A stretch of 62,427 nt of DNA, filler included. It is 4 parts of 4 records of this genome, joined end to end, with 100 filler letters (N's around TTAATTAATTAA, not from the genome) between each part and the next. Parts side by side here need not be neighbours in the genome. Positions count along the whole stretch, not along the records: positions 1 to 14,013 come from SRR31156797_6274; 3 more parts are not named here. One strand, 5' to 3'. Position 1 is the first letter of the stretch. Each line of letters starts with the position of its first letter. The notes below the pieces were generated by a model. It ran no database searches. It saw nothing but the letters and a program-made list of their open reading frames with translations, and was not told the origin of the DNA. The translations under genes were made by a program, and so were the position numbers. Below, in pieces: positions 1 to 43,986 of this stretch.

Positions 1-2191
1 ACGTGACAGTTTCCCGTCATACGGCTCAAGTCATTTAAAACCAACTTTCAAATTGGCAACAATAATTATTTTACACTTTTCTTTATCCTTTTTCATTTCG
101 TAGTAATCCGAGTATTCTTTTAAGTACGGGTTTGCTTCATGTTTTACTACTATATGTCTTCTTATCTTTGTGTTACTTGCAAATGCGAGTTTTGTTTCGT
201 ATGCTCTAAATATCCAATCTCTGGTTTCTGTATTTGTCCAATATCTTTCTTTTATCCAGTTCTTGGATTTGTTTTGGTGACGGCGTTTCGCCCATCGCCA
301 GAGATAATAGAAAATATGCATATCTAACTTTTGAAAGGTTTCTTTTGAACATACGGCTTTATAGTAATTACACCAGCCTCTGATTACTGGATTTAATGCG
401 TTGATTAATTCTAATTGTCCAGATGCTAGATGTGCTCTTAATATTTTTCTAATCTTTAAAAGTATATTCTTCTTTGATTTTATTGATGGTTTCATTAGTA
501 GTTTCCCTTTGTATTTCCTGATGTTAAATCCTAAGAAATCAAACCCTTCGTTAATATGTGTAATCAAAGTTTTCTCTTTCGATAACTCTAACCCTCTTTC
601 TTTTAAGAACTCTTCTATCATTTCTTTGATATCTTCCAGAACATATCTGCATTTACTAGTTACAACAAAATCATCTGCATATCTTATGATGTTGACTTTC
701 TTTTTGTTGTACCTTCTTCCAAATCTGTGCTTTGTTGGACTTCTCCAGTATTTATCTTGAATTAAATGTTCTAATCCATCCAAAGTCATATTTACAAGAA
801 TTGGTGAAATTATTCCTCCTTGGGGTGTACCTTCTTTGGTAGTGAATAATCTTTTGTTAAAGACATACCCTGATTTAAGAAATTGACTTAGTATTTTCTT
901 ATTGATTGGAATGTTTTCTTTCATCCATTCATGACTGATGTTATCAAAGCATCCTTTGATATCTCCTTCCAATACCCATTCAGCATGATTAGGTTTAGCC
1001 ATTAGTTTAAACAGATGGTCTATAGCATCATCTGTACAACGGTGTTTCCTGAAACCATATGAATTCTTATCTGCTGTGGATTCGGATACAGGGTCGAGAG
1101 CTAATGCATAGAGTGCTTGCATTGCTCTATCATATATGGTTGGTATTCCAAGAGGTCTTGTTTTACCATTTAATTTTGGGATTAGTATCCTTTTTAAGGG
1201 CTTTGCTCTGTACTTCCTATTAGTCAGAGATACTGCACCTATATATTTTAGGGCTGAACTTGACCATAGTTTACCATCAATACCTGATGTTCTTTTACCT
1301 CTGTTAGATGTTACTTTCTTTACTGCTAGAAGTTTAGCGTAATGAGAATTTGTAAGAAGGTGTTGAAGTTTCTTTACAAGGTTTAGTTTTCCTTTAATTA
1401 TTGCTTTAGCTATTCGTGATTGAAGTTTATTAACATGTTTGTTAATTGCTTTCCAATTTATTATTTCCCATTTGAAAGTTGCTTTTGATTTGTCTATAGT
1501 AGCCCACTCCTTTGTGTAATGAGTAATTTGGCTTGCTATATTCATAAAGTTTCAATCCTTTCAATCCTTAAATGACCACGATAGAAGTCTGTTTCCTTTC
1601 GGAATGAGGCAAATTTTGAACCTCTATGTATTTCATTACAAAAGACCCTTCGCTTTCTCTATCTTTCCTTTCCCCACTGAATATTGTACTCATTTTGCAA
1701 AGAGCCTACCTCAAGGGAATTCATTGGGCTTAACCAGTTCTACATATTAGCCAATTCGTATTTCCTTAGATTCCATCCCTACTCCGGAGGTATTAGTCCA
1801 TTTGTTGGAAGGTAAAACAAAGACCGCCAACCCCACCTCATGCCTTTTGGCTACAGTGTATCAGCCTTATTTCACTGTTTACGTTTGACGAAGCTGCAAT
1901 AGTTCATATACATTAATCAGAGGATTTTAAATAATTTCCTTTAAGGTTCTAAGTGAATTATTTAAAATCCATATAGAAATACATTTACTCTAACAGAACC
2001 TCCGCATTAAGGGCTTGCAGATTATCCATATTGTCCTTACAGCTTAGCACCCAGTCATTACTGACTACGCACCTGTAAGTAGAGTTACTCCAAATGGAAT
2101 GAGTAGTCCGAAGGTCGAACTTAATTTATTTTAAGCGACTTAGACAGCCTAATATATAGCTTATCCCTGTTATTTCAAGGGCTGGTCGCAC
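1..2191 (-). mobile_element. Group II intron (probably CL/IIB class); 3' end runs off the window
   Basis: Minus strand starts GTGCGACCAGC at 2191 (GUGYG consensus). Domain V GAGCCGTATGACGGGAAACTGTCACGT at 27..1 lies right after the ORF stop. Hairpin 1853-1878 carries TGATA in its loop, complementary to the exon end TATCA (EBS1/IBS1). RT ORF is inside. Confidence 0.9.
31..1545 (-). CDS. ltrA: Group II intron reverse transcriptase/maturase, no C-terminal HNH endonuclease
   Basis: N-terminal LQSRIAKA...LQHLL...AVKKVTSNRGKRTSGIDG; RPLGIPT, EGDIKGCFDNI, GTPQGGIISP, RYADD; X domain LNPVIRGWCNYY; no HNH or Zn-finger tail. Confidence 0.96.
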   Translation of the reverse strand: MNIASQITHYTKEWATIDKSKATFKWEIINWKAINKHVNKLQSRIAKAIIKGKLNLVKKLQHLLTNSHYAKLLAVKKVTSNRGKRTSGIDGKLWSSSALKYIGAVSLTNRKYRAKPLKRILIPKLNGKTRPLGIPTIYDRAMQALYALALDPVSESTADKNSYGFRKHRCTDDAIDHLFKLMAKPNHAEWVLEGDIKGCFDNISHEWMKENIPINKKILSQFLKSGYVFNKRLFTTKEGTPQGGIISPILVNMTLDGLEHLIQDKYWRSPTKHRFGRRYNKKKVNIIRYADDFVVTSKCRYVLEDIKEMIEEFLKERGLELSKEKTLITHINEGFDFLGFNIRKYKGKLLMKPSIKSKKNILLKIRKILRAHLASGQLELINALNPVIRGWCNYYKAVCSKETFQKLDMHIFYYLWRWAKRRHQNKSKNWIKERYWTNTETRDWIFRAYETKLAFASNTKIRRHIVVKHEANPYLKEYSDYYEMKKDKEKCKIIIVANLKVGFK

Positions 2192-2195
2192 TGAT

Positions 2196-2357
2196 ATATA
2201 ACGTCCCCAGTGTATGTGCAGTTGTTCCGACGAAGTCCTGATATGGTAAAGTAATCGATACAATTCTGTGTGTCCCACCTGCGAGCTTTGCTCTCGAGAA
2301 CGTGCTGGTATGGGCTTTGCCCGAGTCGGAATAATTGCATAGTACACTGTGTTATGC
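2196..2357 (-). repeat. attC-like imperfect palindrome (162 bp)
   Basis: Minus strand reads GCATAAC-A-CAGTGTA-CTA-TGCAATTATTCCGAC...GTCGGAACAACTGCA-CA-TACACTG-GGGAC-GTTATAT. TAAC/GTTA ends, CAGTGTA/TACACTG perfect, inner arms match 13/15. Confidence 0.65.
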
Positions 2358-2487
2358 GTTTATTATGTTTAGGAATGTTTGCTACTGCACATCACACTGT
2401 GACCAGGATGGGAACTCGCAATATAAACTTTTCTATTTCTCATTACCCATAGTGTTATTATTTTAAATTTTAAAAATTGAAAACTGT

Positions 2488-4494
2488 CTACACTTTATAT
2501 ATTTCAAGTACTTGAATCTTATATGCATCAAGAACTACATAAATATTTTTTATATCCTTTCCTTTAATTGGTGCCTTCCATAGAGGTCTATCTGGGTAAA
2601 ATGAAAATAAATCCTTTACTTGAAAATAACTTTCAGGATTTTTATCCAACATTTTTTTTACTCCTGAACCAATTCTAAATATAGAATTTTGCTCATTAGT
2701 ATCTAAATTGCTAAAAACATTTAGAACTTTTTCATCTCCCATCTTTTCAAATCCCATAATTTGTGTATTATTATGTTCACATATCAATCTTTCTCTTTTC
2801 GTTGTTTGTAATGCTTGATTTTGCTCTCTTAAAACTCCTGCTTTAGAAATCCAATAGCAAAGTTCTTTATTTGCCTCTGGTAATTTTTTATTTCTAACTT
2901 GCCAAAGTGTTGGAATTCCACCTTTTCCTTTAAAGTGTAATTTCTTTGCTTCTCCATATTCATCTCCAGCTAAAGTTGTAACTGGACCTCCCATAAACAG
3001 CATAGTAATTAAGGTATTTCCAAATCTTCTTAAGTCAGAGTTTTCTTGACCTGAAAAAACTTCAAGTCCTCTATGTTCATCATGATTTCCACTTCCTGTG
3101 AATTCTAAAAATTGAGGATGATTATAAATATTCCAAATTTCAGATAAATTCTTTTCCCCGAAAGATTTCAAAAGGGAAAGATACCAATTAGATTGAATAA
3201 CATCTCCAACATTAGATGTAAATTGTTTTCTATTATGATCTTCCATTAGCAGTATCAATGATTCAAAATCATTTAGTTTAGTTCTGGCTTTCCATTCAAC
3301 CCATGGTAAAGTCTGTGTGAAAAATTGATATGGCATTCCCAAAGAATGATCAATTCTAAATCCATCAACGCCAAGTTCTACAACTGCCCAAAGCATTACC
3401 CTTCCTATATAATCTAATACTTTTTGGTTTTCCTCAGTAGATACATCCCATTTATTTTGACCAGCGTGAGCTCCATGATTTAAATGCTTTACATCATTCC
3501 ACTCTCCATACCAATTAGGAGAATAAGTCTCACTTACATCATCTGCACCGTATGGATTATATTTTCCATTAGCATCTTTTGATGCATACATTTTTGGATA
3601 AATATATTCAGCAAAATCTGCAATTTCTGTATTTTTGTTCATTTCTATAAGATTTTTTGTTTCATCTAGCTTGGAATATATTGCAATTTGGCTATAATCT
3701 CGGCTTTTTACAGTATGAGACTCAACAAAATAATCCCTAAAAATATAGTTATGCCCAACATGATTTGGAGCAATTCCAAAGACTACCTTCATATTTAGTT
3801 TGTGTGCTTGATCAATCAAGAATTTCATTTCATTATTTGCTGTAGTATGCCTTTTGTTTTTGTCCCACTCAGGTATCAATTTGGCTTTTTCAGAGATTTC
3901 AGGATCAATAGATAACCAATCAGTACTTGCATAGTCGCTTCCTGCAGTATCAACATCATATCCATGCTCCCAATGATCAATTCTATATGGTGTTTGAAAC
4001 CAAATGCAATTGACTCCTTGTCTTTTTAGTTCTGTAAGGTTATACATTTGATAATCAGTAGTAAGCATATCAGAAATTGTGGAAATATCATCGGAATTAT
4101 ATCGTGCATTAGCTTTATCAATTGGTACTTGCTTAACATATAAACCTTCTACATTCTTAGTAGGTACTCTAAAATACATATTATTATTAACCCATAATTT
4201 TTTATTTCCTCTAACAATATAAGCTGTTACAGTATATGTTCCTGGTGTTTGTGTATCAATTGATAGTTCATAAATCATCACACCTCTACAATCTGCCAGT
4301 TTCCTCATTTTCATATTATTAAATATAGCAGGATTTTCTGAACCATGATTTGTATGTAAAAAAACATCAGATACATTTCGTTCCTCTCCAATGTCAAAAC
4401 TTAATTCAATCTTAAAAGTAACAAAATCATTATTTCTTGAATCGATTATCAAACTTCCTGGTATCATTGTTTTACATGTAAAATTAATTTTCAT
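2488..4494 (-). CDS. Alpha-amylase family (GH13) glycoside hydrolase
   Basis: GH13 regions VFGIAPNH, GVDGFRIDH, LLMED and GNHDE. Start moved to ATG 4494, after a GAGGAGG RBS. Confidence 0.8.
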   Translation of the reverse strand: MKINFTCKTMIPGSLIIDSRNNDFVTFKIELSFDIGEERNVSDVFLHTNHGSENPAIFNNMKMRKLADCRGVMIYELSIDTQTPGTYTVTAYIVRGNKKLWVNNNMYFRVPTKNVEGLYVKQVPIDKANARYNSDDISTISDMLTTDYQMYNLTELKRQGVNCIWFQTPYRIDHWEHGYDVDTAGSDYASTDWLSIDPEISEKAKLIPEWDKNKRHTTANNEMKFLIDQAHKLNMKVVFGIAPNHVGHNYIFRDYFVESHTVKSRDYSQIAIYSKLDETKNLIEMNKNTEIADFAEYIYPKMYASKDANGKYNPYGADDVSETYSPNWYGEWNDVKHLNHGAHAGQNKWDVSTEENQKVLDYIGRVMLWAVVELGVDGFRIDHSLGMPYQFFTQTLPWVEWKARTKLNDFESLILLMEDHNRKQFTSNVGDVIQSNWYLSLLKSFGEKNLSEIWNIYNHPQFLEFTGSGNHDEHRGLEVFSGQENSDLRRFGNTLITMLFMGGPVTTLAGDEYGEAKKLHFKGKGGIPTLWQVRNKKLPEANKELCYWISKAGVLREQNQALQTTKRERLICEHNNTQIMGFEKMGDEKVLNVFSNLDTNEQNSIFRIGSGVKKMLDKNPESYFQVKDLFSFYPDRPLWKAPIKGKDIKNIYVVLDAYKIQVLEIYKV

Positions 4495-4679
4495 TTGTAT
4501 CCTCCTCATTAAGCTAATCAAAAGAAATAATAATTAGCTTATAAATTTTTCTTATTATATATTACCAGCTATACCAACCAAATTCATTAAACATTTTCTT
4601 ATAGTCAAAAAATCATATCTATTTTGCTTAGTCATCTGATGAAACTAATTTAAATCCCTTTATTTTGAAATGATTCTTT

Positions 4680-4703
4680 TATCAAGACATAGATGTCTTG
4701 ATA
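4680..4703. repeat. Perfect 11-bp inverted repeat downstream of the integrase remnant
   Basis: TATCAAGACAT-AG-ATGTCTTGATA; function unknown. Confidence 0.6.
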
Positions 4704-4730
4704 TAGTGCGATTGTGTTGCGCATTATTTT

Positions 4731-5139
4731 TTATAAGTCATCTAATGGACTTTTTACATTTTGAATCAAATTAGTACTGACATGAGTATAGATTTCTGTA
4801 GTTTTACTGCTAGCATGACCTAATAGTTCTTAAGCCATGACCAGTTTCAAGTAAATGTGTGGCAAAACTATGTCTTAATGTATGAACAGTAGCATTTTCA
4901 TTGATACCACTACGTTGCTTAGCTTTTATAAAAATATTTTGAATGCTTCGTTTAGAGTATTGAGTTCCCGCTTCAGGTCCTTCAAAAAGATAAATTCTGG
5001 GTTTATATTTTTTGTAATACTCCTTAAGTTCGATTTTTAATTTTTCAGATAAACCTACGATTCTATCTTTTTTTCCTTTAGCACCGTTAATTCTTATAAT
5101 ATTTCTATTTGTATCAATATCACTTAATTTTATCGTTAA
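4731..5139 (-). pseudogene. Integron-integrase-like tyrosine recombinase, 5'-truncated and frameshifted (absent from the ORF track)
   Basis: Manual translation gives KLSDID...GAKGKKDRIV...YKPRIYLFEG...ATVHTLRHSFATHLLETG, then a frameshift near 4830, then ELLGHASSKTTEIYTHVSTNLIQNVKSPLDDL*. The N-terminal half including the first catalytic Arg box is missing. Confidence 0.88.
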
Positions 5140-5634
5140 TCGCGATTGAGTTTAATTCTCTCTCTAAATTATACATTTTTTCACTATGTCATTCAAGAAA
5201 AATAGATATCGTAAAATTATAATATGTGAATTAAAATACTGACTTAATATGCTTGAAAACCGATAAGATGAATAAAAATATACGAAAAAACTATTAATTG
5301 TATAAAAATACCGTTTTTCTAAGAAAAATAACACCAAAATAGTTTTTGTATTTTTATGAAAAAATCAGAAAAAATTTAAACCATATCTTAATATGATGAA
5401 TATTGTGCTAATTTATAGTCTGGTAATATTTTATACTATTCACTAAGTGAAATATGTTTTGGAAAAAAAGAGAGATAGGCGGGGCTAGAATTAATATTTG
5501 AAAATGAAGTATCATGTATAGTATACTTAAATAAGTGTTCGGAAATTAATTATTAGAAATTAAATATTTTAAGAAGAACTAATATAAGCTTTGTGCTTTT
5601 AAAAAAAATTAGAAACTGACAGAGGTGAAATACT

Positions 5635-7230
5635 ATGAAGAAATTATATCTATTTGTACTGTTATTAATATTTTCACTGAACAGTTATCCTGACAGTAGA
5701 GGAGTTAAGCTTCGAGCTAGAGAGTTTGGTGTAAATGAAAATGAAATAGGAAAGCAATGGTTGCTTCTTATTGCGATTAATGAATATACGCAATGGCCAA
5801 ATTTGAAAAATCCAATAAAGGATGCTAGAGAGATAAGAAAGATTTTAACAGAGAATTACTACTTCGATGAAATACTTGAGATTTATGATAATGAGGCTAC
5901 TAAAGCAGGAATAATCAAATCTATTTCAAAAATAAAAACACAGATTAAACTTAATGATTCTTTGCTTATATATTATGCAGGGCATGGTCATTTTGATGAG
6001 TTGTCAAAAACGGGGTTTTGGATACCTCAAAATGCAGGAATAGATGAATTCGAGCAGGAAAACTGGTTGCCTAATATTCAAATAAGAGGTTACCTCAATC
6101 AAATAAAAGCAAAACATGTAGCTCTAATATCTGACTCATGTTTCTCAGGAGATATTTTAAATCTAAGTAGAGGAAAAAGACCTGAAATCAATAATGAATT
6201 TTTGAAAAAAGCATATTCAAGAAGGTCTAAAGAAGTTCTTACAAGTGGAGCAAGCGAAACTGTTCCTGATGATTCGGAATTTTCAATGCATTTGAAAAAT
6301 ATTCTGGAATATAATACAAAATCTTTTTTAGATTTAATGACAGTTTATAATGAAATAAAGCTTGGAATTTTTGAAACTCTTCCTTTATTTGGTAATCTAA
6401 AAGGTTCAGGAAGTCAGGAAGGTGGAACTTTTATACTGTTTAAAAGAGATGAGAAGCTCACTGAATCTGGAAATAATGAATTTAATAATCAAAGGAACTC
6501 GCATAGAAATACATATGATTATTTGGGAAATTTCGTTTTAGTTAAAGGAAATGCTTCTATAAAACATGATTTTTATATATCTAAGTATGAGGTAACGCAA
6601 GAGGAGTTTATTAAACTCATGAATTTTAACCCTTCGGAATTTAGAAGCGAAACCTCTCCCGTAGAAAATGTAAGTTGGTTTGACGCAATAATATATTGCA
6701 ATAAATTAAGTAGAGAACAAAATTTAGCAGTAGCTTATAACGATATTACAGGGAAACTTGTTGATAAATTTGGAAATCCTACTTCGGATTTAACTAAAGT
6801 TGAAGGGTACAGACTTCCTACACAAGCTGAATGGGAATATTCCGCAAAAGGTGCCAAAAATTCCAGTAGATATAAATATAGTGGTGGTAATTATGCTGAT
6901 GAACTGGCATGGTATTGGAAAAATTCAGGGATAAAAAAATTATCAGGAACTTGGGATTGGGAAATGCTAGAGAAAAATAACGGAAGAACTCATTCTGTTG
7001 GACTTAAAAAAGCAAATGAAATTGGACTTTATGATATGAGTGGAAATGTGTGGGAATGGTGTCATGATTGGTATAATAACAATAAAAGCAGTGGTGAAAA
7101 AATATTAGTTGGTGGAAGTTGGAGCAGTGATTTAGAAGATATATCTGTTTTTAATATTGGGAGTTATTATCCAAATGAAATAAGTAATGATACAGGATTT
7201 AGAATAGTTAGAACTAAAATTCAAATATAA
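5635..7230 (+). CDS. Exported caspase-like (peptidase C14) plus FGE-sulfatase/CLec domain protein
   Basis: Signal peptide; YYAGHG and ISDSCFSG dyad; KYEVTQ, PVENVSW, RLPTQAEWEY, GLYDMSGNVWEW, GFRIVR. Confidence 0.88.
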   Translation: MKKLYLFVLLLIFSLNSYPDSRGVKLRAREFGVNENEIGKQWLLLIAINEYTQWPNLKNPIKDAREIRKILTENYYFDEILEIYDNEATKAGIIKSISKIKTQIKLNDSLLIYYAGHGHFDELSKTGFWIPQNAGIDEFEQENWLPNIQIRGYLNQIKAKHVALISDSCFSGDILNLSRGKRPEINNEFLKKAYSRRSKEVLTSGASETVPDDSEFSMHLKNILEYNTKSFLDLMTVYNEIKLGIFETLPLFGNLKGSGSQEGGTFILFKRDEKLTESGNNEFNNQRNSHRNTYDYLGNFVLVKGNASIKHDFYISKYEVTQEEFIKLMNFNPSEFRSETSPVENVSWFDAIIYCNKLSREQNLAVAYNDITGKLVDKFGNPTSDLTKVEGYRLPTQAEWEYSAKGAKNSSRYKYSGGNYADELAWYWKNSGIKKLSGTWDWEMLEKNNGRTHSVGLKKANEIGLYDMSGNVWEWCHDWYNNNKSSGEKILVGGSWSSDLEDISVFNIGSYYPNEISNDTGFRIVRTKIQI

Positions 7231-7250
7231 AAATTAAAAGGGGGATTTAT

Positions 7251-8348
7251 ATGAAGATTAAATTATCAGTTTTATTTTCTTTAATGTTACTAAGTTTCTT
7301 TTACACAATGGCATTTGATACTTTGCCAAATGACAATGAAAACTGGAGAATACCGGGGAAATCAATAGGAATTACTACAGGTTCAAGCACAGGGACATAT
7401 ATTAAATTTGGGGAAACAATTAAGCGATTGGCGAAAGATGAGAATGTAAACGTCAAAGTATACGAGAGTAAAGGTTCTGTATCTAATATGATAAGGTTAA
7501 TTGGTAAAAAAACTTATGATTATGATAGAGATGATGCAGGAAGACCATTTCAGTTTGGGATAGTTCAACATGATTCTCTAAAATATTTCGAAACAAGAGT
7601 AAGGAGAGAAGAGGGCCTTGATCTAAAAAATTATATAAAAGTAGTATTGCCTTTATACAGTGAAGAAGTACATATTTTAGTAAATAAAGATTCGAACATA
7701 AATGATATTATGGATTTAGAAGGTAAAAAAGTAAGTATTGATCAAATTAACTCAGGAAGTTGGGTAACAGGAACGGTTATCCGAAGGTTTTTAGGTTTGG
7801 AATGGAGGCAGTATAACTATTCACCAAAAGAGTCAATTGTAAAAGTAATAAACGGTGAAATAGATGCATTTATTTATGTAGCCGGAATTCCTACCAAAAA
7901 TTTTGAAGCTTTAAGTAACTTGAAAAAAATAAAGAAAAAAGATGCAAACAGTGTAGTTAAGCTACTAGATGTAAAACCTTCTTGGAAAAATAAAGATAAT
8001 CCTTTATGGAGATTTTATTATGAAGCAGAAATCCCCGCATCCTCTTATAAATGGTTGAAAGAAGATGTACAGACTTTAAAAACAAAAGCTGTTCTGGTAA
8101 CATGGAACTATAAAAAAAATTCAAGCAAAGAATGGCACAGATATACTTATGACAATATAGATGATATTATTATTAGCATAAATGATAATTTATCTACTCT
8201 TCAAAGAGATGGACATCCGAAATGGAAGCAAGTTGATTTAAAAGATACTGAAATTGACTGGCCTTTTCATGAGAAAGCATTAGAAGCTTTAGAGTATATT
8301 AACACAGGTAAAATTAAAATAACAGAGGAAGATTTATTTAATTTTTAA
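7251..8348 (+). CDS. TAXI-family TRAP solute-binding protein
   Basis: Signal peptide; TGSSTGTY, SKGSVSN, LYSEEVHILV, DLEGKKV, terminal PFHEKA. Confidence 0.85.
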   Translation: MKIKLSVLFSLMLLSFFYTMAFDTLPNDNENWRIPGKSIGITTGSSTGTYIKFGETIKRLAKDENVNVKVYESKGSVSNMIRLIGKKTYDYDRDDAGRPFQFGIVQHDSLKYFETRVRREEGLDLKNYIKVVLPLYSEEVHILVNKDSNINDIMDLEGKKVSIDQINSGSWVTGTVIRRFLGLEWRQYNYSPKESIVKVINGEIDAFIYVAGIPTKNFEALSNLKKIKKKDANSVVKLLDVKPSWKNKDNPLWRFYYEAEIPASSYKWLKEDVQTLKTKAVLVTWNYKKNSSKEWHRYTYDNIDDIIISINDNLSTLQRDGHPKWKQVDLKDTEIDWPFHEKALEALEYINTGKIKITEEDLFNF

Positions 8349-8350
8349 GA

Positions 8351-8394
8351 TATCCCCTTACTTTTAAGTAAAAAGTAGGGGGATAGTTTTTTTT
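8351..8394 (+). terminator. Rho-independent terminator
   Basis: TATCCCCTTACTTTT-AAGT-AAAAGTAGGGGGATA followed by a T-run, just after the stop codon. Confidence 0.8.
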
Positions 8395-8508
8395 ATGAAA
8401 AAATCAAAACAATACTTTAGTATGGTGAAAACAACACATATTTATAGTATAGTAATAATATATAAAACTATGAAAAGATTAAACTATAAAAAAAGTGGGG
8501 ATGATAAA

Positions 8509-8967
8509 ATGATTGGGAATAATGAGATAAAGATTTTCATTCAAAATGAAAAAGGTAGTGACATCAGAAATAAGCATAATGAGAAAACTCTAGAATTTCT
8601 GGGAAAAGCAAAAAACAGATTAAAAGCTCCATACCCTTATCCTTATGGTTTTATTTTGGATACTTCAGCTGATGACGGAGATAATTTAGATTGTTATGTA
8701 ATAACAAATAAACAGTTTAGTGCTGGAGAGATAATTAGTTGTGAAGTAGTTGGATTGATTGAGCAATATGAGGAAGATGAAATTGACCATAAGATAATTG
8801 CAGTAATTCCAGATGAAGCGGTTGATCTGGAGAGAGCGTATAGTGAGATCGGGGAGTTTATTTATACGATTTTTTCAGTATATGATGATATTGAGATCAA
8901 AGTAGGGGAACTCCTGGGAAAAGAAGATGCTATGGAGCTAATTGAAAATTCTAGAGTAAATAAATGA
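8509..8967 (+). CDS. Inorganic pyrophosphatase family protein
   Basis: YPYPYGFILDTSADDGDNLD and EIDHKIIAV; ATG 8509 preferred because of the upstream GGGG RBS. Confidence 0.8.
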   Translation: MIGNNEIKIFIQNEKGSDIRNKHNEKTLEFLGKAKNRLKAPYPYPYGFILDTSADDGDNLDCYVITNKQFSAGEIISCEVVGLIEQYEEDEIDHKIIAVIPDEAVDLERAYSEIGEFIYTIFSVYDDIEIKVGELLGKEDAMELIENSRVNK

Positions 8968-9764
8968 GATTTATAAATATAGTTGTTATGATGCTTTTCA
9001 TATTTACAATAAATTTTTCATGTACTATTTTTACTTTGAGCGATGAATACAATACCCTGTTTTGCAATAACGAAGATTGGAAAAATCCTAAAAGCAGAAT
9101 ATGGTTTGAGCCAAAAGCAAAAAAGGATTACTATTCTTGTGCTTTCGTTGGATTTAACAATCAATGGGCACAGGGCGGTGTAAATACAGAAGGTTTAGCA
9201 TTTGATTGGGTTGCGGGATATAAAGGTAAAATTGATAAGAAAGCTATGCAAAAAAATGTTAGAGGAAATCCCAGTGAGAAGATGTTAAAAACTTGTAGAA
9301 ATATAGAAGAGGCAATTGAGTTTTATAAAGATCATTTTGAATCAGCTTTTTCATACGCCAGAATAATGATTGCTGACAGTTCCGGAAGTTCTGTAATTAT
9401 AGGAGCAAACAATGGGGAGCTATTTTATGAGAAATCAAATAGTCCAACTGGTATTGGTTATGCTCATGAGAAGGTAAAGAGTATCATTAGCTCAAAACCA
9501 AGTATTAGTACTGCAAAACTAATTGCAAAAATAGCAGAGCAAAAAGGAAAATACGGGACAAAATATCATAATTTTTTTGATTTGAAAAATGGAGATATCT
9601 ATATATTGACCAGTGGAAAAGATAAGAGATTAGTGAAGCTAAATCTTGAAGAAGAATTAGTTAAGGGAAAACATTACTACAATATTCCTAAAATTCATGT
9701 GGAAATAGAGAAGAGATTGAAGAAAAATAATAAGTTTAAAGAAATAATAAAATGGTTTTTTTAA
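8964..9764 (+). CDS. Exported Ntn-hydrolase (C45/C59-like)
   Basis: Signal peptide followed by CTIF (N-terminal Cys nucleophile), NNED and GGVNTEGL. Confidence 0.7.
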   Translation: MRFINIVVMMLFIFTINFSCTIFTLSDEYNTLFCNNEDWKNPKSRIWFEPKAKKDYYSCAFVGFNNQWAQGGVNTEGLAFDWVAGYKGKIDKKAMQKNVRGNPSEKMLKTCRNIEEAIEFYKDHFESAFSYARIMIADSSGSSVIIGANNGELFYEKSNSPTGIGYAHEKVKSIISSKPSISTAKLIAKIAEQKGKYGTKYHNFFDLKNGDIYILTSGKDKRLVKLNLEEELVKGKHYYNIPKIHVEIEKRLKKNNKFKEIIKWFF

Positions 9765-9796
9765 TTGTGCTTGATTAAAAAATTAGAATAGGAGAT

Positions 9797-11572
9797 GTGG
9801 AACAGATGGAATTTAGACTAATAATTGCGCTAATACAAGTAGTATTAATAATATTTACAATAATTAATTTAATTAAATTTTATTCTCGAAAGTCAGGAAA
9901 TAAAAAAGCCTCAAGAGAAGCATTATATAAGTTGAGAAAAGAACAGGGTGGTGAATTTCCTTCTGTTCCTACTGATCAGGTTGGACATTTAAAGGAGATT
10001 TACAAAAAAGATTTCAATATTGCAGAATTAGTTGAAATATCGGGGATTTATAGTGAGATGATTTTTGAAGCGCATCACAGAGGCGGTAAGACGGAGAGTA
10101 TAGTTTCATATTTCAATGAACATGAAGTAGTAGTTCCAAATAATAGTGATTTTAAAAGTGGAGTTAATTATGAGCTAAAAACAGCACTGCTAAAGAGTAA
10201 ACTCTATCTTATATCAGCTGAAGTATCTGAGATTCAGGAAAATGAGGAGCTTATTCAGGAAACTAATGAAATCGAAGGGGTATCTGCCACTGATAGTTTA
10301 GCAAAATTAGATGGTATTAAGCAAATAAGAACACAATCTACTGGTGAGAAGAAACTATTTTTAGCATCGTCAATAATTATTATCATAGGGACATTTTTTC
10401 TAAGTATTATGTCAGGTGTAGAAGCCTTTGTAGCTATTCCATATGTTGTTGCTATAACTTTGCTCTGTATGCTCATTAGTTTGATGCTAATGTTGATGAA
10501 ATCAAAGCCGGTAATATCGTTTAAGGGAGAAGTAACGAAAGATGAACATGGCAGTGTTTTTATAGAGAAGATACCACTTCTTATGCCAAAAAAATGGTCA
10601 AAAACAATTGAAAATGGAGAGATAGTTGAGATAGAAGCTATTAAGCAAGTTAATAAAGTAGTAACTTTAACTCCATTGAAGTATAAAGAGTTTTCAGTTC
10701 AGAAAGATAATAAAGGCTTTAAACTTAGCAGATTTATCTACTTTATTATTATGGCACTATATTTTTCCGGATTTACTTATTTAGTGTGGAATAGCAAAAA
10801 CTTTGAAAAACTCAGAACATACGCTAAGATAAAGGATATAAAATCAGATTTTTATACTCAGAAAGAGATAAATGAGCATGAGTTCGTAGAAGGGCAAATG
10901 ATAAAAATTCATAATGTAAGATATTTAGAGAATCCACATTATGGAGAAGCCTTGGTGTTAAATGACTTCCTTCCTTTGGATGAAAAATTAAATAGAAAAA
11001 TAGCTGAATGGGATGCAGTAGCTGAGGATATAAATATATTTGTACAAAACCCGGCAATGTATTTTTATCAAGGTAGAGGTAATAAATATACGGATAATCA
11101 ATATTTCACTAAATTACTGGAACTTCTACAAGATGCTAATTCGTCTCAAAATGAAATAGCTAGAACTTTTACGAGTTTTTTAAATAACAGGTTAAACCCT
11201 ATTAATGACGAAATAGAGAAGCTTCGGTTGGAGAGATATCAAAATGTTGAAAGTAGTTTAACTTTAACTGGGAGTTCAGTGAATAGTTCAGAGTATAGAT
11301 ACGTTAGAAATGCATATGATAGTTTTATAAAACTTCCTGATCTATTTAAAGCTTTTTATGGTATAAATGATGCCTTAGTTGAGGGAGTAGTAAATAGAGT
11401 AGAGGAGAAAAACGGAAAACTAAAACTGGAGATATCGAAGTACTCAAGTTATGATAGAATAGACAGGTATAAACCATATGAAAAATTGTTTGAATTTTTA
11501 TATTCTGTAGTTGCTATATTTGTAATGCTTATGTTACTTGAACTATTTAGATTAGTGTTTAAACGAGATTAA
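9797..11572 (+). CDS. Multi-pass membrane protein, IgaA/UmoB-like architecture
   Basis: Five hydrophobic segments in a 1+2+1+1 arrangement with a large domain before the last. LLMPKKW and EFVEGQMIKI recall IgaA segments (from memory). Confidence 0.5.
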   Translation: MEQMEFRLIIALIQVVLIIFTIINLIKFYSRKSGNKKASREALYKLRKEQGGEFPSVPTDQVGHLKEIYKKDFNIAELVEISGIYSEMIFEAHHRGGKTESIVSYFNEHEVVVPNNSDFKSGVNYELKTALLKSKLYLISAEVSEIQENEELIQETNEIEGVSATDSLAKLDGIKQIRTQSTGEKKLFLASSIIIIIGTFFLSIMSGVEAFVAIPYVVAITLLCMLISLMLMLMKSKPVISFKGEVTKDEHGSVFIEKIPLLMPKKWSKTIENGEIVEIEAIKQVNKVVTLTPLKYKEFSVQKDNKGFKLSRFIYFIIMALYFSGFTYLVWNSKNFEKLRTYAKIKDIKSDFYTQKEINEHEFVEGQMIKIHNVRYLENPHYGEALVLNDFLPLDEKLNRKIAEWDAVAEDINIFVQNPAMYFYQGRGNKYTDNQYFTKLLELLQDANSSQNEIARTFTSFLNNRLNPINDEIEKLRLERYQNVESSLTLTGSSVNSSEYRYVRNAYDSFIKLPDLFKAFYGINDALVEGVVNRVEEKNGKLKLEISKYSSYDRIDRYKPYEKLFEFLYSVVAIFVMLMLLELFRLVFKRD

Positions 11573-11674
11573 CAGCTTTTGAGGAAATAAACTAACTAAA
11601 AAAATAAGAACTCCTTGAAATATAAAGTTTGAGAGTTTCTGGGAGCACATAAATAAAATGTGGAGGAAATATTT

Positions 11675-12253
11675 ATGAATAAAAACAGATGGACTGTTTT
11701 ATTAATTGGTGGCTCATCAGGTATAGGAAAAAGCAGTATAGCCAAAGAGTTATCAAAGATATATGACGCAAAAATAATTGAAGCGGATGATATATGCTGT
11801 GCTGTTGAAGCCATGACAAACGCCGAATCACATCCGGCAATCCATTATTGGATGGGAGATACAGACTGGAGAGACATCGGTGTAATGGGAAACGTAGATT
11901 GGTTATGTAAAGTGAGTGATGAGTTAAGCCATGCATTGAAAGCTATAGTTCAGAATCATATTGAAGAGGAAAAAAATCTAATCATTGAGGGAGACTTTAT
12001 ATCTGCAAAACTAGCTGCTTCATTTGAAAATCCAAATATAAAAGTTGTATATATTTATGAAGATGATGAAACTCAAATTGTAAATAATTATTTGAGAAGA
12101 GAAGGTGGAAAAGCGCAAGAGTTTAGATCAAGTATAAGTGTCGAATATGGAAAAAAGCTAAAAAATGATTGCAACGAGCATGGTCTAAAGATAGTAGAGT
12201 CCAGGCCCTGGAACTCTCTGTTAGATAGAGTGATTGATTGTATAAATAGATAG
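11675..12253 (+). CDS. P-loop kinase (2-phosphoglycerate kinase-like)
   Basis: LIGGSSGIGKS Walker A and LIIEGD; GGAGG RBS before ATG 11675. Confidence 0.75.
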   Translation: MNKNRWTVLLIGGSSGIGKSSIAKELSKIYDAKIIEADDICCAVEAMTNAESHPAIHYWMGDTDWRDIGVMGNVDWLCKVSDELSHALKAIVQNHIEEEKNLIIEGDFISAKLAASFENPNIKVVYIYEDDETQIVNNYLRREGGKAQEFRSSISVEYGKKLKNDCNEHGLKIVESRPWNSLLDRVIDCINR

Positions 12254-12281
12254 TTGTAAAATTTAGAAAAAATGAAAAAGA

Positions 12282-12306
12282 GGTTTCTCTTTGTGAAAGA
12301 GAAACC
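12282..12306. terminator. Hairpin between convergent genes
   Basis: GGTTTCTCTTT-GTG-AAAGAGAAACC. Confidence 0.65.
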
Positions 12307-12330
12307 GCTAAAAAGGGAGAAGTTTAACTC

Positions 12331-13878
12331 CTAGCTTTGTTGAGTTATTAAATCTTTTAGCATAAATCGTCTTAATTTTCCTAATCTGGTTTTAGGAAGC
12401 TCAGTATGGATGATTTTAAAATTTACAATTTTTTTATAAGAAATGCTTTTTTTATTGTAATAATCCATAACACTGGATTTAATTATTTCTCGTATTTTAT
12501 CATGTTCTCGAAAACCCAATTTCTCATAATCAGGTAATAAAAGTGCATTTAGACGATCGTTATGGTCTACAACAGCAATTTCCTGTATAAACTCTTTTCC
12601 AAACTTCATGATTTCATTCTCTATAGTTAATGGATCAATATTTTTCCCATTAGATAAAACTATCATATCCTTTTTTCTTCCTGTGATCTGTATGTAATTT
12701 TCCGAATCAAAACTTGCTAAATCACCTGTATGTAACCAACCGTTCTTATCAATAGCTTCTCTGGTTTTTTCAGGTTTATTGTAGTAACCTTTCATGACAC
12801 TTCTACCTCGTACAAGCAATTCACCCTCTTCTGAGATTTTAGTTTCTATTGACTCCAGAGGACTTCCTGCTGAGCCGGGCTTGATATTGTCCGGTTTAGT
12901 AAATGTCACTATTGGCGAAGTCTCTGTTAAACCATACCCTTCCAAAATTTTAAATCCGAGAGTGTAAAAATCTTTTGAGATCTCTCCATCTAATTTTGCA
13001 CCACCGGATACAAAATATTTAATATTACCACCAAAGGCTCTATGAACTTTTCCAAAGATTATTTTTCTTAAGTTTTCACTTTTGATTTTTTTAGCTAATT
13101 CAAATATAAATCCTGTTATTTTTTTTGATATAATCTTATTTATTATTCCCTTATGAAAAAGACTAAATAACTTAGGAACACCAACGAAAATAGTGGCTCT
13201 ATAATCTGTAAATGCTTTTTTTATCTTGTCAGATGTAAGCTCGGTAATAAAAACTGATGTTGAACCATAATAAAACGGCAATATTCCCGTTACAACCAAT
13301 GCAAAAATATGATAAAGAGGTAATACCGTGAGCAATATATCACTCTCCTCATAAATCCCGTATTTACTTATTGATTCTATTTGTGCCAGGATATTATCAA
13401 ATGTAAGCATTACACCTTTTGGATCACCTGTAGTTCCCGAAGTATAAAGTATTAATACAGTATCTTCTTTATCTGGTGCTTCCATTTCCGACACTTCTTC
13501 ACTTGTATTTTTATTAGAAATTTCTTCAAAGATTAATAATTCTATATCAAGTCCTGATTTTTCAATTGCACGTATTGCAATCTTTTTTTTATCTGCTGAA
13601 GTAAAAATATATTTTGGACTAGAATCCTTTAATACATAACACAATTCATCTGCATTGCTTGCAGAATCTATTGGAGTAGCTATTCCTTTTTTATCCCAAA
13701 CTGCAAATAATGAATAAAGAAATTCCGGTCTGTTCGCTGAAAAAATAGTAACTCTATCCCCTTTTTCCAGATTTAGCAAAGTCCCATAACTGTTTATTTG
13801 CTTTAGAAGTTTAGTATAACTCACTTCTTTCCCGTCACAAATAACTGCAGTTTTTTTCAGATTTCTAATTAATTTCAT
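12331..13878 (-). CDS. Long-chain fatty acid-CoA ligase (AMP-binding)
   Basis: YTSGTTGDPKG, EGYGLTETSP, GWLHTGDL and GRKKD motifs. Confidence 0.92.
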   Translation of the reverse strand: MKLIRNLKKTAVICDGKEVSYTKLLKQINSYGTLLNLEKGDRVTIFSANRPEFLYSLFAVWDKKGIATPIDSASNADELCYVLKDSSPKYIFTSADKKKIAIRAIEKSGLDIELLIFEEISNKNTSEEVSEMEAPDKEDTVLILYTSGTTGDPKGVMLTFDNILAQIESISKYGIYEESDILLTVLPLYHIFALVVTGILPFYYGSTSVFITELTSDKIKKAFTDYRATIFVGVPKLFSLFHKGIINKIISKKITGFIFELAKKIKSENLRKIIFGKVHRAFGGNIKYFVSGGAKLDGEISKDFYTLGFKILEGYGLTETSPIVTFTKPDNIKPGSAGSPLESIETKISEEGELLVRGRSVMKGYYNKPEKTREAIDKNGWLHTGDLASFDSENYIQITGRKKDMIVLSNGKNIDPLTIENEIMKFGKEFIQEIAVVDHNDRLNALLLPDYEKLGFREHDKIREIIKSSVMDYYNKKSISYKKIVNFKIIHTELPKTRLGKLRRFMLKDLITQQS

Positions 13879-14013
13879 TCAATACCTCCCTTTTAAATCT
13901 TAATTTATTGAATAGTTCAACTAATTTTAGAAAAAATTAAAAGCTAATTGTGTAATAGCTTATAATTATAATGAACTGCAAAGATAACCACACAATACTG
14001 TAGGGGCAGAATC

Positions 14014-22901: not shown

Positions 22902-25697
22902 TTGCAAAACGAAATACAAACACGTCAAGAACATATTGATACAAAATTACTCCTCTCTGGTTGGGATGTAAATAACTATGCTCTAGTAAGGGAAGAATTT
23001 GTAAATAGTTCTGTGGTTTCAGATATAAAGTCTACCTATACAAAAGATAAAAAACAGTTTTGTGATTATGTTCTTCTTGGTCGAGACGGGAAGCCTTTGG
23101 CTGTGATTGAGGCAAAAAAAAGTTCAATTGATGCTAGGGTTGGGCAAGAACAGGCTAAGCAGTATTGTTACAATCTACAAAATGAATATGATATCGATCT
23201 TCCTTTTTGTTTTTATACCAATGGCAATGATATCTACTTTTGGGATATAGAAAATTATCCACCTAGAAAAATCTATGCGTATCCTACTAGAGAGGATTTA
23301 GAGCGATTACGTCATATACAAAAATATAAAAAGTCCCTTTCCCATGAGTTTATTGATACTTCTATTGCAGGGAGAGATTATCAGGTGAGTGCCATACGAT
23401 CAGTGATGGAGCTTATTGATAAAAAAAGAAGAGATTTTTTACTAGTGATGGCAACCGGTACAGGGAAAACTCGTACTACGATTGCACTTGTGGATGCTCT
23501 TTTAAGGGCTGGGTATATTAAAAATACTCTTTTTTTAGTAGATAGGGTGGCTTTACGTGAACAAGCTATTGAGGCTTTTAAAGAGTATATCCCAAGTGAA
23601 CCTATTTGGCCAAAGTTTGGGGAGAGTAGTATAAGTAAAGATAGACGTATCTATGTAGCTACATATCCAACGATGTTAAATATTATACGAGATGAGGAGC
23701 AGACTCTCTCTTCACATTTTTTTGATCTAATTGTGATAGATGAATCTCATAGATCTATTTATAATACTTATGGAGAGATTCTTAATTATTTTGATTCCAT
23801 TAAGCTAGGGCTTACGGCAACTCCTACCAATGTGATAGATCATAATACTTTTGATCTTTTTGCTTGTGAGGATGGACTGCCATCATTTGCATACTCTTAT
23901 GAAGAGGCCTTGGATCATCTCCCACCGTATCTATGTGATTTTGAGGTGTTAAAGATACAAACAAAGTTTCAAGATGAGGGGCTTAGTAGAAGAACTATCT
24001 CTTTAGAAGATCAAAAAAAGATGATCTTGGAAGGAAAAGAGTTAGATTTAGATGAGATAAACTACGAGGGGACTCAGCTAGAAAAAGATGTGATCAATAG
24101 AGATACCAATCGTATTATCGTAAAAGAGTTTATGGAAGAGTCTATAAAAGATAGTGATGGGGTGATTCCTACAAAAAGTATCTTTTTTTGTATGACCAAA
24201 GCTCATGCTAGAAGAGTAGAAGAGCTTTTTAACTCTTTATATCCAGAGTATAAAGGGGAGCTTGCTAAAGTGATTGTTTCAGATGATAGTAGAGCTTATG
24301 GAAAAGGTGGGCTTTTAGATCAGTTTAAAACCCAAGATATGCCAAGAGTTGCTATAAGTGTGGGTATGCTCGATACAGGAGTAGATATCAAAGAGGTATC
24401 AAATCTAGTATTTGCAAAGCTTATTTACTCTTATACCAAGTTTTGGCAAATGATAGGGCGGGGGACTAGGCTCCTTGATCAACAAAATTTACAACCTTGG
24501 TGCATAGAAAAAGAGAAGTTTCTTATAATGGATTGTTGGGATAATTTTGAGTATTTTAAGCTTGAACCTCAGGGGAAAAACCTCACTTCTCAAACTCCTT
24601 TGCCTATTATATTCTTTGGGCTAAGGGTTCAAAAGATAGCAAGTGCATTAACGCTAGATGAAAAGATAGCACAAAAAGAGATAGAAAAGCTAAAAGAGTT
24701 TATAGAGTTATTTCCTAAAAACTCTACGATCATACAAGATGGGAAAAATTATCTTGATAAGTTGGATTCTCTATTTTATAGAACGCTTTGCAAAGAGAGT
24801 TTAGAGTTTTTAGATGAGTTTATAAAACCCTTGGCAAAATCTATCGTAGGGGTGGATTATAAAGCGATGCGATTTGAAAAAGATGTATTGGAGTACTCTA
24901 TCTATCTCCTTGAAGATGATGAGCAAAATAGGGTAAAACAAAGAGATACTTTGATAGCTTTAATAGAGAAGCTTCCTTTAAGTGTCAATATAGTGGCAAA
25001 AGAAGAGGAACTTATCTTAAAAGCTAAAGAGGTAAAATACTGGAACCATCTAAGCGATAGTGATCTTGATATCTTAGTGGATAAATTAGCACCACTTATG
25101 AAATATAGAGCTGAAGGAGGCGTGGGAGATGATGAGACTCCAAGCTTTGATTTTAAAGATTATATCAAGAAAAAAGAGTATGTGGAGTTTGGTGCAGATA
25201 GGGAATCTGTAAGTATTACAAAATATAAGCAGATGGTAGAAGAAAAGATCAAAGAGCTTTTAAATAAAAATATCTCTCTACAAAAGCTAAAAGAGGGAAA
25301 AACTTTATCAAAAGAAGAGATAGAAGAGTTAGCCCAGACTCTACACCAGCAAGACCCTTTTATCACCCTTGATCTTTTGCGTAGGGTGTATATGAATAAA
25401 AAAGCACCTTTTTTAAAGTTTATCAAACATATTTTAGGAATAGAAGAGCTAAAAAACTTCCCAGATACAGTAAGTGAATCTTTTGAGAAGTTTATCAAAG
25501 AGCATCCTACCCTTACCGCCACACAGTTAAAGTTTTTGGATCTATTAAAAGGATTTATTATAGATAATGAGAGCTTAAGTAAAAAAGATCTTATATCTGC
25601 ACCTTTTACAGTGATACATCCCTCTGGTATATTGGGGATATTTTCTGATAATGAGATAGATGAAATAATAAATATTACACAGGAGTTAGTAGCATAA
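22902..25697 (+). CDS. hsdR: Type I restriction enzyme R subunit (EcoAI/EcoEI-like)
   Basis: DY...IEAKK nuclease motif, ATGTGKT, DESH, TATP, QMIGRGTR; EcoEI_R_C-like tail. Confidence 0.93.
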   Translation: MQNEIQTRQEHIDTKLLLSGWDVNNYALVREEFVNSSVVSDIKSTYTKDKKQFCDYVLLGRDGKPLAVIEAKKSSIDARVGQEQAKQYCYNLQNEYDIDLPFCFYTNGNDIYFWDIENYPPRKIYAYPTREDLERLRHIQKYKKSLSHEFIDTSIAGRDYQVSAIRSVMELIDKKRRDFLLVMATGTGKTRTTIALVDALLRAGYIKNTLFLVDRVALREQAIEAFKEYIPSEPIWPKFGESSISKDRRIYVATYPTMLNIIRDEEQTLSSHFFDLIVIDESHRSIYNTYGEILNYFDSIKLGLTATPTNVIDHNTFDLFACEDGLPSFAYSYEEALDHLPPYLCDFEVLKIQTKFQDEGLSRRTISLEDQKKMILEGKELDLDEINYEGTQLEKDVINRDTNRIIVKEFMEESIKDSDGVIPTKSIFFCMTKAHARRVEELFNSLYPEYKGELAKVIVSDDSRAYGKGGLLDQFKTQDMPRVAISVGMLDTGVDIKEVSNLVFAKLIYSYTKFWQMIGRGTRLLDQQNLQPWCIEKEKFLIMDCWDNFEYFKLEPQGKNLTSQTPLPIIFFGLRVQKIASALTLDEKIAQKEIEKLKEFIELFPKNSTIIQDGKNYLDKLDSLFYRTLCKESLEFLDEFIKPLAKSIVGVDYKAMRFEKDVLEYSIYLLEDDEQNRVKQRDTLIALIEKLPLSVNIVAKEEELILKAKEVKYWNHLSDSDLDILVDKLAPLMKYRAEGGVGDDETPSFDFKDYIKKKEYVEFGADRESVSITKYKQMVEEKIKELLNKNISLQKLKEGKTLSKEEIEELAQTLHQQDPFITLDLLRRVYMNKKAPFLKFIKHILGIEELKNFPDTVSESFEKFIKEHPTLTATQLKFLDLLKGFIIDNESLSKKDLISAPFTVIHPSGILGIFSDNEIDEIINITQELVA

Positions 25698-30641: not shown

Positions 30642-30642
30642 G

Positions 30643-31701
30643 ATGCTTAAACCTTATAAATATTTAAAACACGATCTAGAAAAAGTCCAAGATTTTGTCA
30701 ATTATATATTTTATGATATTTGGATGAAAGCTGATCTATCAAAAACGTATTTGACTCTTTTTCTAAAAGAACCCTATAAAAAGCTTATGAATGATCTGAA
30801 TGTATCAGATAGTATGACTAGCAGTAAATTTTGTATATTGGTAGATAATATTTATAAAAAAGTTGGAGGACTTGATCAGACTAAGAAAGAACTCCTTAAA
30901 AGCTATTATCAAACGAACTTAAATATAGAGGCTTTATGTGAAGATACAACTATTATTCCTATTAGCTATACAAAACTTGAAAAAGAGTTTGGTACAAAAC
31001 TAACAGATAAAATTAAAGAGTTTTATGATCTTTTATATGGAAGCGGTAGTATTTTGACTTTAAAAGAAGTACTTCGTATTTCTAGTTTTGGTGATCATTA
31101 TGATCAATTTATAGAAGAAAATAAAAATAGATGTTTATTTTGTGGACTAGATAAGTTAGAGATTGTCGAGGAGTATAGAAGTGATTATGATCACTTTTTA
31201 CAAAAAGCAAAATACCCTTTTGTATCTATAAATTTAGAAAATCTAGCTCCAACTTGTGATAGGTGTAATAAAAAGTTTAAAGGGAGTAAAGACCCATTAT
31301 ATAAAGAAGATAAGGTTACAAGAAGAAAAGCTATCTATCCATACTCTTTAAAACCATATGATTTTACTATACATATGAAATTAAAAAATATAGTTGATAC
31401 AAAAGGAAAGATAAAAGATACCAATATTGATATGGATCTTTTTGTAAAATCAAAAGAAGAAACTAATACATGGAATGAACTTTATAAAATAGAAAAGAGA
31501 TATAAAGGAGTGTGCAGTTCTAAAGATGAAGCTGATAGATGGATACAAAGTGCTAGATTATATATGAAAGAATCCAATTCATCTTTAGATGGTTATATAG
31601 AGTTTCAAAAAAAGAGATTAGAGGAGATTGATCCTTATTTTGAAATATTATTTTTGCAGTTGCCATTTTTAGAAGCTTGTAAAGAGGCAGATATAATTTG
31701 A
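30643..31701 (+). CDS. HNH endonuclease (PtuB-like) with N-terminal extension
   Basis: CLFCG...DHFLQKAKYP...NLAPTCDRCN. Confidence 0.8.
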   Translation: MLKPYKYLKHDLEKVQDFVNYIFYDIWMKADLSKTYLTLFLKEPYKKLMNDLNVSDSMTSSKFCILVDNIYKKVGGLDQTKKELLKSYYQTNLNIEALCEDTTIIPISYTKLEKEFGTKLTDKIKEFYDLLYGSGSILTLKEVLRISSFGDHYDQFIEENKNRCLFCGLDKLEIVEEYRSDYDHFLQKAKYPFVSINLENLAPTCDRCNKKFKGSKDPLYKEDKVTRRKAIYPYSLKPYDFTIHMKLKNIVDTKGKIKDTNIDMDLFVKSKEETNTWNELYKIEKRYKGVCSSKDEADRWIQSARLYMKESNSSLDGYIEFQKKRLEEIDPYFEILFLQLPFLEACKEADII

Positions 31702-43928: not shown

Positions 43929-43986
43929 ATGGTTTGACTCCTTCATATCGTTAAATTTCGAAAAAACGTTGAATAGTAACAAACAT

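Follow-up and report, generated by a model that had tools for sequence, protein, structure and literature searches.

Does a group II intron that starts a few bases beyond an attC-like palindrome belong to a lineage that homes to integron cassette arrays, or does it lie beside such an element for another reason? This question is raised by an intron at the left end of a DNA stretch of 62,427 nucleotides (the window), which consists of parts of four records of one genome joined by filler letters and of which positions 1 to 14,013 come from the record SRR31156797_6274. The original prediction for this locus was an independent, non-IIC lineage of cassette-array-homing introns, which uses the invariant GTTA core of attC sites as intron-binding site 2 (IBS2). 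Our analysis favors another explanation: with a probability of about 0.7, we are dealing with a IIB intron of the ordinary kind that lies next to a solitary palindrome, at a site that it matches only in part and that is probably ectopic or decayed. The exon would be read by two pairings, one between exon-binding site 2 (EBS2, 1885-1881) and exon positions -13 to -9 and one between the loop containing exon-binding site 1 (EBS1, 1823-1813) and positions -6 to -1.

The intron and all parts of it described here lie on the minus strand. Its junction with the 5' exon could be read directly: the exon ends GTTATATATCA / ...GGGGACGTTATATATCA and is followed by the intron start GTGCG at 2191, and the G of GTT occupies exon position -11 (2202), so that both the junction and the distance of 11 nt are as had been claimed. 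The 5' part of the intron with domains I to IVa (1546..2191) was delimited by the sequence, by an alignment with the 5' ends of 69 relatives and by a match to the Rfam family RF02012 (group-II-D1D4-7) at 2101-1994 with 55.6 bits. The adjoining intact reading frame (31..1545) encodes a reverse transcriptase (RT)/maturase of 504 amino acids with a YADD motif, in which a Pfam search detected only the domains RVT_N, RVT_1 and GIIM and no HNH or other endonuclease (En) domain, in agreement with the prediction. The contig ends inside the intron, thereby cutting domain V after its first 29 nt (1..29; partial match to RF00029, 33 bits, truncated at the 3' end), and domain VI, the 3' end of the intron, the 3' exon and the left flank lie beyond the contig end. 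In run X1, the likely source run, the contig starts at window position 1 too, and the depth over the bin 1-100 is six-fold elevated (228 vs 37), which suggests that several introns of that genome share domain V and that this broke the assembly.

The 5' GUGYG boundary, the beginning of domain V and the RT/maturase reading frame in domain IV are all features of a group II intron. Its class was assigned by similarity to solved RTs, and the RT tree, which was built with FastTree, contains no class reference RTs. The closest solved protein is the T.el4h maturase (6me0_C, E 2.2e-149), while LtrA (1.3e-39) and the IIC RTs (1e-27 to 1e-35) are far more distant; together with the presence of an EBS2 in the RNA, this bears out the claim that the intron is not of class IIC. 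RT relatives reach 69% identity (metagenome protein P0001) and 58-63% in Halanaerobiales, and no relative of the window RT was found in viral contigs. Judged by its sequence, the element belongs to the mobile group II introns of bacteria and is of the IIB type, with a chloroplast-like (CL) RT/maturase that lacks an endonuclease domain. A 49-nt near-palindrome within domain I (1922-1970), which has two AT-rich arms and a 19-nt loop, is an insertion that is missing from most of the aligned relatives.

The exon-binding sites were located by comparison. A total of 110 related loci were fetched (RT identity 30-60% for 109 of them; L110 matches only with a fragment of 18 residues), and the first 420 nt of 69 relatives were aligned with those of the window intron, resulting in 70 rows; at least eight loci with mis-called or ambiguous 5' ends (L021, L045, L046, L064, L029, L049, L085 and L087) were kept as misses in the EBS counts. 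EBS2 is the sequence AACGU (1881..1885), which directly follows a conserved CGTNA motif and is left unpaired by the consensus fold. It pairs at all five positions with exon -13 to -9 in 36 of the 70 rows, and its mean pairing is 4.21 compared with 2.96 after shuffling the exons among the introns (200 shuffles, maximum 3.21). In the window, AACGU (1885-1881) pairs 5/5 with ACGUU at -13 to -9, which identifies ACGTT (2200..2204, minus strand) as IBS2. EBS1 lies in the terminal loop UCUUUGUUUUA (1813..1823), as the relatives' best match to exon -6 to -1 falls here; the structural EBS1 is UUGUUU/UGUUUU (1820-1814), and the hairpin with the loop 1823-1813 also forms in the minimum-energy fold. This loop pairs 6/6 with exon -6 to -1 in 39 of the 70 rows, whereas shuffling gives an average of 3.2 rows. 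The window intron itself fits poorly: the IBS1 position ATATCA (2192..2197, minus strand) is complementary to the structural EBS1 at only four of six positions, which is the level expected by chance (shuffled mean 3.98).

Two other pairings had been proposed for this intron, the one between the loop UGAUA (1863-1859) and exon TATCA as EBS1 and the one between UAAUGU (1915-1910) and exon ACGTTA as EBS2. Both motifs are present at the predicted positions; their assigned roles could not be upheld. UGAUA is located in the loop of a conserved hairpin (1854..1877, stems 1877-1873 and 1858-1854), which is supported by compensatory changes in 20 sequences, and TGATA occupies this loop in 20 of the 70 rows, whereas only the exon of the window ends with TATCA. 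The loop is therefore conserved independently of the exon, and EBS1 is found at 1823-1813 instead. In the alignment, UAAUGU (1910..1915) is a conserved domain I motif and no exon-binding site, with EBS2 located at 1885-1881. As bare complementarities, both pairings are at or below chance: with G-U pairs allowed, the 646-nt 5' part of the intron contains one site that can pair with TATCA (shuffles average 3.7) and one that can pair with ACGTTA (shuffles average 1.6). The predicted IBS2, ACGTTA at -13 to -8, was nearly exact and covers GTT, and only its pairing partner is a different one.

Since EBS1 pairs at only four of six positions, this copy most likely resides at a non-cognate or since-mutated site and not at its homing site. 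It could have arisen, for example, by ectopic retrotransposition, and its cDNA might have been primed at replication forks, as has been reported of introns that lack an endonuclease. According to the accessible part of PMC4424553, homing is the rule for all intron lineages except class C, CL introns without the En domain are a minority, and endonuclease-lacking introns use replication forks for priming. The introns of T. elongatus are IIB1 introns related to EcI5, as stated in the available text of PMC2882425. T.el4h/TeI4h and EcI5 (IIB1, CL RT) share with the window intron the 5' GUGCG, domain V, a protein with RVT_1 and maturase domains and the recognition of the exon by EBS1 and EBS2, and the same source places the IBS2 of TeI4h around -13 (PMC2882425), as in the window intron. 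However, the TeI4h protein is described there as having an endonuclease domain (PMC2882425), which the window RT lacks, and the EBS1 of the window intron does not fit its own exon, unlike that of T.el4h/EcI5-type introns.

The palindrome in the 5' exon (2196..2360, minus strand) was identified by its inverted repeats and by arm duplex energies. It is imperfect, with arms at ~2360-2325 and ~2231-2199 around a 93-nt center, and carries the R''-like heptamer GCATAAC (2357-2351) at one end and the R'-like GTTATAT (2202-2196) at the other; the intron is placed 8 nt beyond its 3' arm. The arm duplex has an energy of -18.4 kcal/mol on the top strand and of -21.3 kcal/mol on the bottom strand, compared with -7.5 +/- 1.8 kcal/mol in shuffles, and an equally stable duplex was obtained in none of 1000 shuffles and at none of 4956 window positions. 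Thus, the TAAC...GTTA palindrome that had been noticed in the exon is real. The whole element, however, folds only modestly better than shuffles, which speaks against an attC (z -1.6 for the top and -2.9 for the bottom strand). No Rfam family matched it even at E values up to 10, although Rfam contains no attC model, and no tRNA or tmRNA was found in the 5' exon. The exon had no match in plasmids, phages or the flanks of loci L001-L110, the palindrome has no second copy in the window, and its depth in run X1 is that of a single contig, as expected for a single copy.

According to the accessible part of PMC5027507, attC sites have the core consensus RYYYAAC for R'' and GTTRRRY for R', an unpaired spacer, extrahelical bases and a variable terminal structure. 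GCATAAC and GTTATAT match this core consensus at six of seven positions each, and five of the seven positions pair between the two boxes. From its first to its last box, the palindrome spans 162 nt (2357 to 2196), whereas the verified attC sites of this study measure 81-87 nt and ~126 nt. The usual length range of attC sites is 57-141 nt. In the best fold, the unpaired spacer comprises 1 nt in one arm and 5 nt in the other, compared with 5 and 5 nt in the verified sites (16 from the genome G001, which is described below, and 4 from Vibrio), and the stem contains one 3-by-2 asymmetry. The palindrome therefore departs from attC in its length, in the two-sided unpaired spacer and in the absence of an array or integrase within the 60 kb to its right. 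It is real and present as a single copy, and its likeness to attC is partial, consisting of the AAC...GTT ends and a G-rich 3' spacer. A crude screen for AAC...GTT palindromes yielded equal counts on both strands, i.e., it does not discriminate between strands, and its matches at 43974-44053, 50056-50115, 60433-60505 and 60920-61033 were taken as ordinary palindromes and not as attC. The first of them, which is strong (-23 kcal/mol) and 80 nt long, separates two minus-strand genes and is probably a terminator.

If the palindrome were a genuine attC site, either solitary or the last one of an array located left of the contig end, the intron would be one of a IIB lineage with the attC top strand as its homing target, and its EBS2 would read ACGTT together with the GTT core. 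This reading draws on the palindrome itself, whose ends match the consensus and whose bottom strand is the more stable one, on the perfect EBS2-IBS2 pairing over GTT, on the presence of the heptamer GCATAAC in a Vibrio attC and on the orientation of the intron. As had been stated, the intron shares its strand with the gene upstream of it, which encodes a GH13-like protein of 677 amino acids with an alpha-amylase catalytic domain (2488..4521, minus strand; Pfam PF00128, E 4.3e-08). A total of 297 nt separate the stop codon of this gene from the intron, so that the insertion is intergenic, and the gene is followed on the minus strand by an AT-rich spacer of ~90 nt, a GC-richer stretch (0.45 vs ~0.27) and the intron. 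A window scan detected no comparable palindrome ahead of the GH13-like gene, which is thus not bounded like a cassette; as a cassette, it would be a gene for 677 amino acids that no such element precedes. Together with the deviant length and spacers, the single copy in run X1 and the misfit of EBS1, this argues against an attC site.

The wider surroundings point in the same direction. The 48 larger open reading frames of the window represent ordinary chromosomal genes, e.g., those for TonB-dependent receptors, pairs of extracytoplasmic function sigma factors and FecR, a type I restriction system, MurJ and DapA. Among them, no integron integrase or tyrosine recombinase was found, and the 60 kb to the right of the intron contain no cassette array, no cassette-like genes and no second site comparable to the palindrome. 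The DapA protein shares 81% identity with a protein from an Arcobacteraceae metagenome-assembled genome (MAG) and 74% with a Campylobacterales protein, which are two of the three organism-named matches among the best 120 listed, the third (81%) carrying a eukaryote label (Anaeramoba); the identity to DapA of five Bacteroidota genomes is only 38-41%. The host chromosome is low in GC, and its DapA comes nearest to Arcobacteraceae among the matches listed. At 22902-31701, the R, M and S genes of a type I restriction-modification operon are followed by a gene for an AAA_21/AbiEii-like ATPase and by one unassigned gene; this region is probably a defence island.

The original prediction further implied that homologous introns would have TAAC...CGTTA palindromes as 5' exons. 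This is not the case: the 5' exons of the relatives are diverse, and hairpins upstream of the introns are not in excess, with an average of -14.3 kcal/mol for 51 relatives compared with -13.6 kcal/mol at 133 control positions. The 51 loci of this test were those with enough flanking sequence, and the eight loci with doubtful 5' ends listed above were dropped. In the soil runs X2 and X3, pieces of the intron were present at a likeness of at least 85%, and there was no depth beyond 2200. Runs X2, X3 and X4 were small shares, and this missing depth was weighed only together with record 15 of run X2, which contains a ~90% similar intron and continues for 185 nt that are unlike the window exon. Hence, the one close relative with a partly visible flank sits elsewhere, which also counts against a dedicated attC-homing lineage. 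Relatives at unrelated sites and the location of UAAUGU outside the EBS2 position are two of the three observations that had been named beforehand as speaking against the prediction; for the third, a grouping of the RT with IIC, the opposite was seen (E 2e-149 to T.el4h vs 1e-27 to 1e-35 for IIC RTs).

Individual loci showed features of their own. In L013, GTT is also found at -11 and the genome encodes an integrase on another contig; its exon is GC-rich and coding-like. In L050 and L070, which derive from two Vibrionaceae genomes, the intron directly follows the glycine-methionine-rich end of a groEL-like frame, with the exon ending ...ATGATGTA; this target is a homing site in a conserved gene and no attC. 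The exon of L083 ends in a perfect 11-bp palindrome, and the intron of L106 follows a terminator-like hairpin, as does L137 of G001. Such cases would suit a second alternative, according to which the palindrome is an unrelated structured element, for instance a terminator-like or cruciform repeat or a small RNA gene, and the intron inserted beside exposed single-stranded DNA, as IIC introns do at stem-loops. The position of the intron 8 nt past the 3' arm and the priming of endonuclease-lacking introns at replication forks, which is reported in the available text of PMC4424553, would also be consistent with it. However, the 51 relatives revealed no enrichment of upstream hairpins, the palindrome matched no Rfam family, and the accessible part of PMC7923331 reports no role of upstream structure for IIB introns. 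This alternative is therefore considered to be quite improbable.

That introns of the IIB type can indeed use attC sites became evident from G001, the chromosome of a Desulfatiglandales MAG (OY759599.1; loci L025, L027 and L118-L144). It encodes five integron integrases above the NCBIfam cut-off and contains 24 intron 5' ends that match one pattern. Among the 22 junctions fetched, 16 are located at one conserved attC family or variant, one at half an attC, four at a second conserved site and one at the terminator-like hairpin of L137. The second site is a putative attI, because it is located 1.1 kb from an integrase in two of its four junctions. At attC, most introns begin at a distance of 6 nt from the G of GTT (7 nt in one junction, and exactly at G|TT in another), at the attI-like sites 5-7 nt after the G. 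All of these introns are inserted in the top strand, and for 14 of the 24, an integrase is found within 60 kb to which they have the expected side and strand. In the ORF-bearing type (containing an open reading frame, ORF), EBS1 (GCGAAC) has exactly the sequence of the R'' box, and all six of its positions pair with the R' box. A second, ORF-less type of ~820 nt starts with UUGCG and uses the same sites; about 12 copies match its pattern (e.g., L121:7684-8500, L121:15314 and L122:6983), and Rfam matches to domains I and V without an RT were obtained for it. G001 thus shows that homing of IIB-type introns to the top strand of attC exists.

Several further arrangements in G001 were observed. At L027:2330-6780 (= L122:2532-6982), two full intron copies are arranged in direct tandem at one attC and are immediately followed by a UUGCG-type intron, as if one 5' exon had been targeted repeatedly. 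In L129 (G001:C1:2371487), a UUGCG intron directly follows GTCG, and the first TT of the intron replaces the TT of attC; this junction, which corresponds to the G|TT crossover, may have been formed by an integrase that recombined the end of the intron. L119 (G001:C1:4415000-4427000, reverse strand) contains six tandem units of 1609 nt, each with the same 131-nt AAC...GTT palindrome, which are placed between the integrase and the intron-bearing cassettes (the first two of the six at positions 3256 and 4865 among the matches listed). At G001:C1:6845296-6848178, the integron integrase is apparently split into two pieces ~1.9 kb apart (234 and 123 bits), and an intron is located at an attI-like site 1.1 kb away.

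The window intron and the G001 introns have in common the insertion in the top strand by the GTT core and an exon-binding site that mimics the R'' arm, and their RTs share 52% identity and the same Rfam domain I model. In G001, however, EBS1 reads the R' box, the insertion is 6 nt after the G, and many sites in integrase-flanked arrays are occupied, whereas the window intron has its EBS2 over GTT, is inserted 11 nt after the G and represents a single case without an array to its right. In addition, the window RT falls into a clade of 32 rows together with Halanaerobiales proteins (support 99), and L025 and L027 belong to another clade of 78 rows (support 99). As the RT clades are separate, the site habit of the G001 introns says nothing by descent about the window intron.

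The published precedent is UHB.I2, a IIB1/CL1 intron from a soda-lake metagenome that lies just downstream of an attC in the orientation of the cassettes (Sonbol and Siam 2021; PMC7923331, accessible part). This case renders outdated the premise that attC-targeting introns are IIC-attC introns, and beyond UHB.I2, our literature searches on introns and attC listed no report of non-IIC introns at attC. The window intron was compared with the published description of UHB.I2. As far as this description goes, UHB.I2 resembles the window intron in being non-IIC, in following the orientation of the upstream gene and in its position directly after an inverted-repeat site (PMC7923331). In contrast, it is part of a cassette array detected by Integron Finder and starts with UUGCG (PMC7923331), while the window intron starts with GUGCG at an atypical site without an array to the right. 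The UUGCG start is shared by UHB.I2 (PMC7923331) and the ORF-less introns of G001. IIC-attC introns, according to the available text of PMC3001079, insert into the bottom strand of attC and thus opposite to the cassettes. S.ma.I2, an intron of this kind, resembles the window intron in its association with an AAC...GTT palindrome, but introns of this kind use the bottom strand (PMC3001079) and have class C RTs, neither of which applies to the window intron, which additionally possesses an EBS2.

Overall, we continue to favor an ordinary IIB intron whose site matches in part; several observations weigh against this explanation. The 5/5 match of EBS2 is unusual for a random ectopic site, the strength of the palindrome is far above chance, and the intron begins only 8 nt past its 3' arm. 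The core ends match the consensus at six of seven positions each, and the R''-like heptamer and the G-rich 3' spacer resemble attC sites beside the integrase of a Vibrio genome. The left flank of the intron lies beyond the contig end, so that an array could be present there. In G001, related introns do use attC and attI-like sites for homing, with insertion in the top strand. Finally, in a second contig of run X1, a domain-I-like stretch is preceded by CCGTTATGG, which was seen only as a loose end of 30 letters. This contig has a length of 4.9 kb and matches 40 nt of domain I (window 2118-2157), and on the intron strand, CCGTTATGG precedes a degenerate 5' end by a few bases.

With UHB.I2 (PMC7923331, as described in its available text) and G001, where 16-17 of the 22 junctions are at attC and four at attI-like sites, a genuine attC has precedents. 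We nevertheless regard it as unlikely here, since the insertion 11 nt instead of 6 nt after the G, the separate and well-supported RT clade and the unlike flank of the close relative in run X2 add to the objections raised above. Slightly more doubtful still is the specific proposal of a functional but diverged attC in a genome like that of Arcobacteraceae, with the intron as a member of yet another IIB lineage, independent of those of UHB.I2 and G001, which homes to the top strand of attC by an R''-mimicking EBS2 on ACGTT. The coverage of GTT by EBS2 rests on one insertion. What stands of the cassette-array-homing IIB lineage is the overlap of IBS2 with GTT; the lineage itself is not shown here, as the 60 kb contain no array or integrase and EBS1 does not fit.

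The window thus contains one more bacterial IIB intron, whose exon-binding sites are now correctly placed and whose site is fitted only in part. For this intron family, a tested rule for the exon-binding sites is provided: EBS2 corresponds to the 5 nt after CGTNA, and EBS1 to loop positions 4-9 of the next-but-one hairpin. The general idea of attC-homing non-IIC introns is right in nature, as G001 demonstrates, although it is not shown at the window. In G001, IIB-type introns with and without an ORF are found at most of the examined attC sites and at attI-like sites as well, always on the top strand, which extends the single published case of UHB.I2. These introns bear on the interplay between introns and integrons, in which they could block or re-promote the expression of cassettes and possibly take part in cassette formation.

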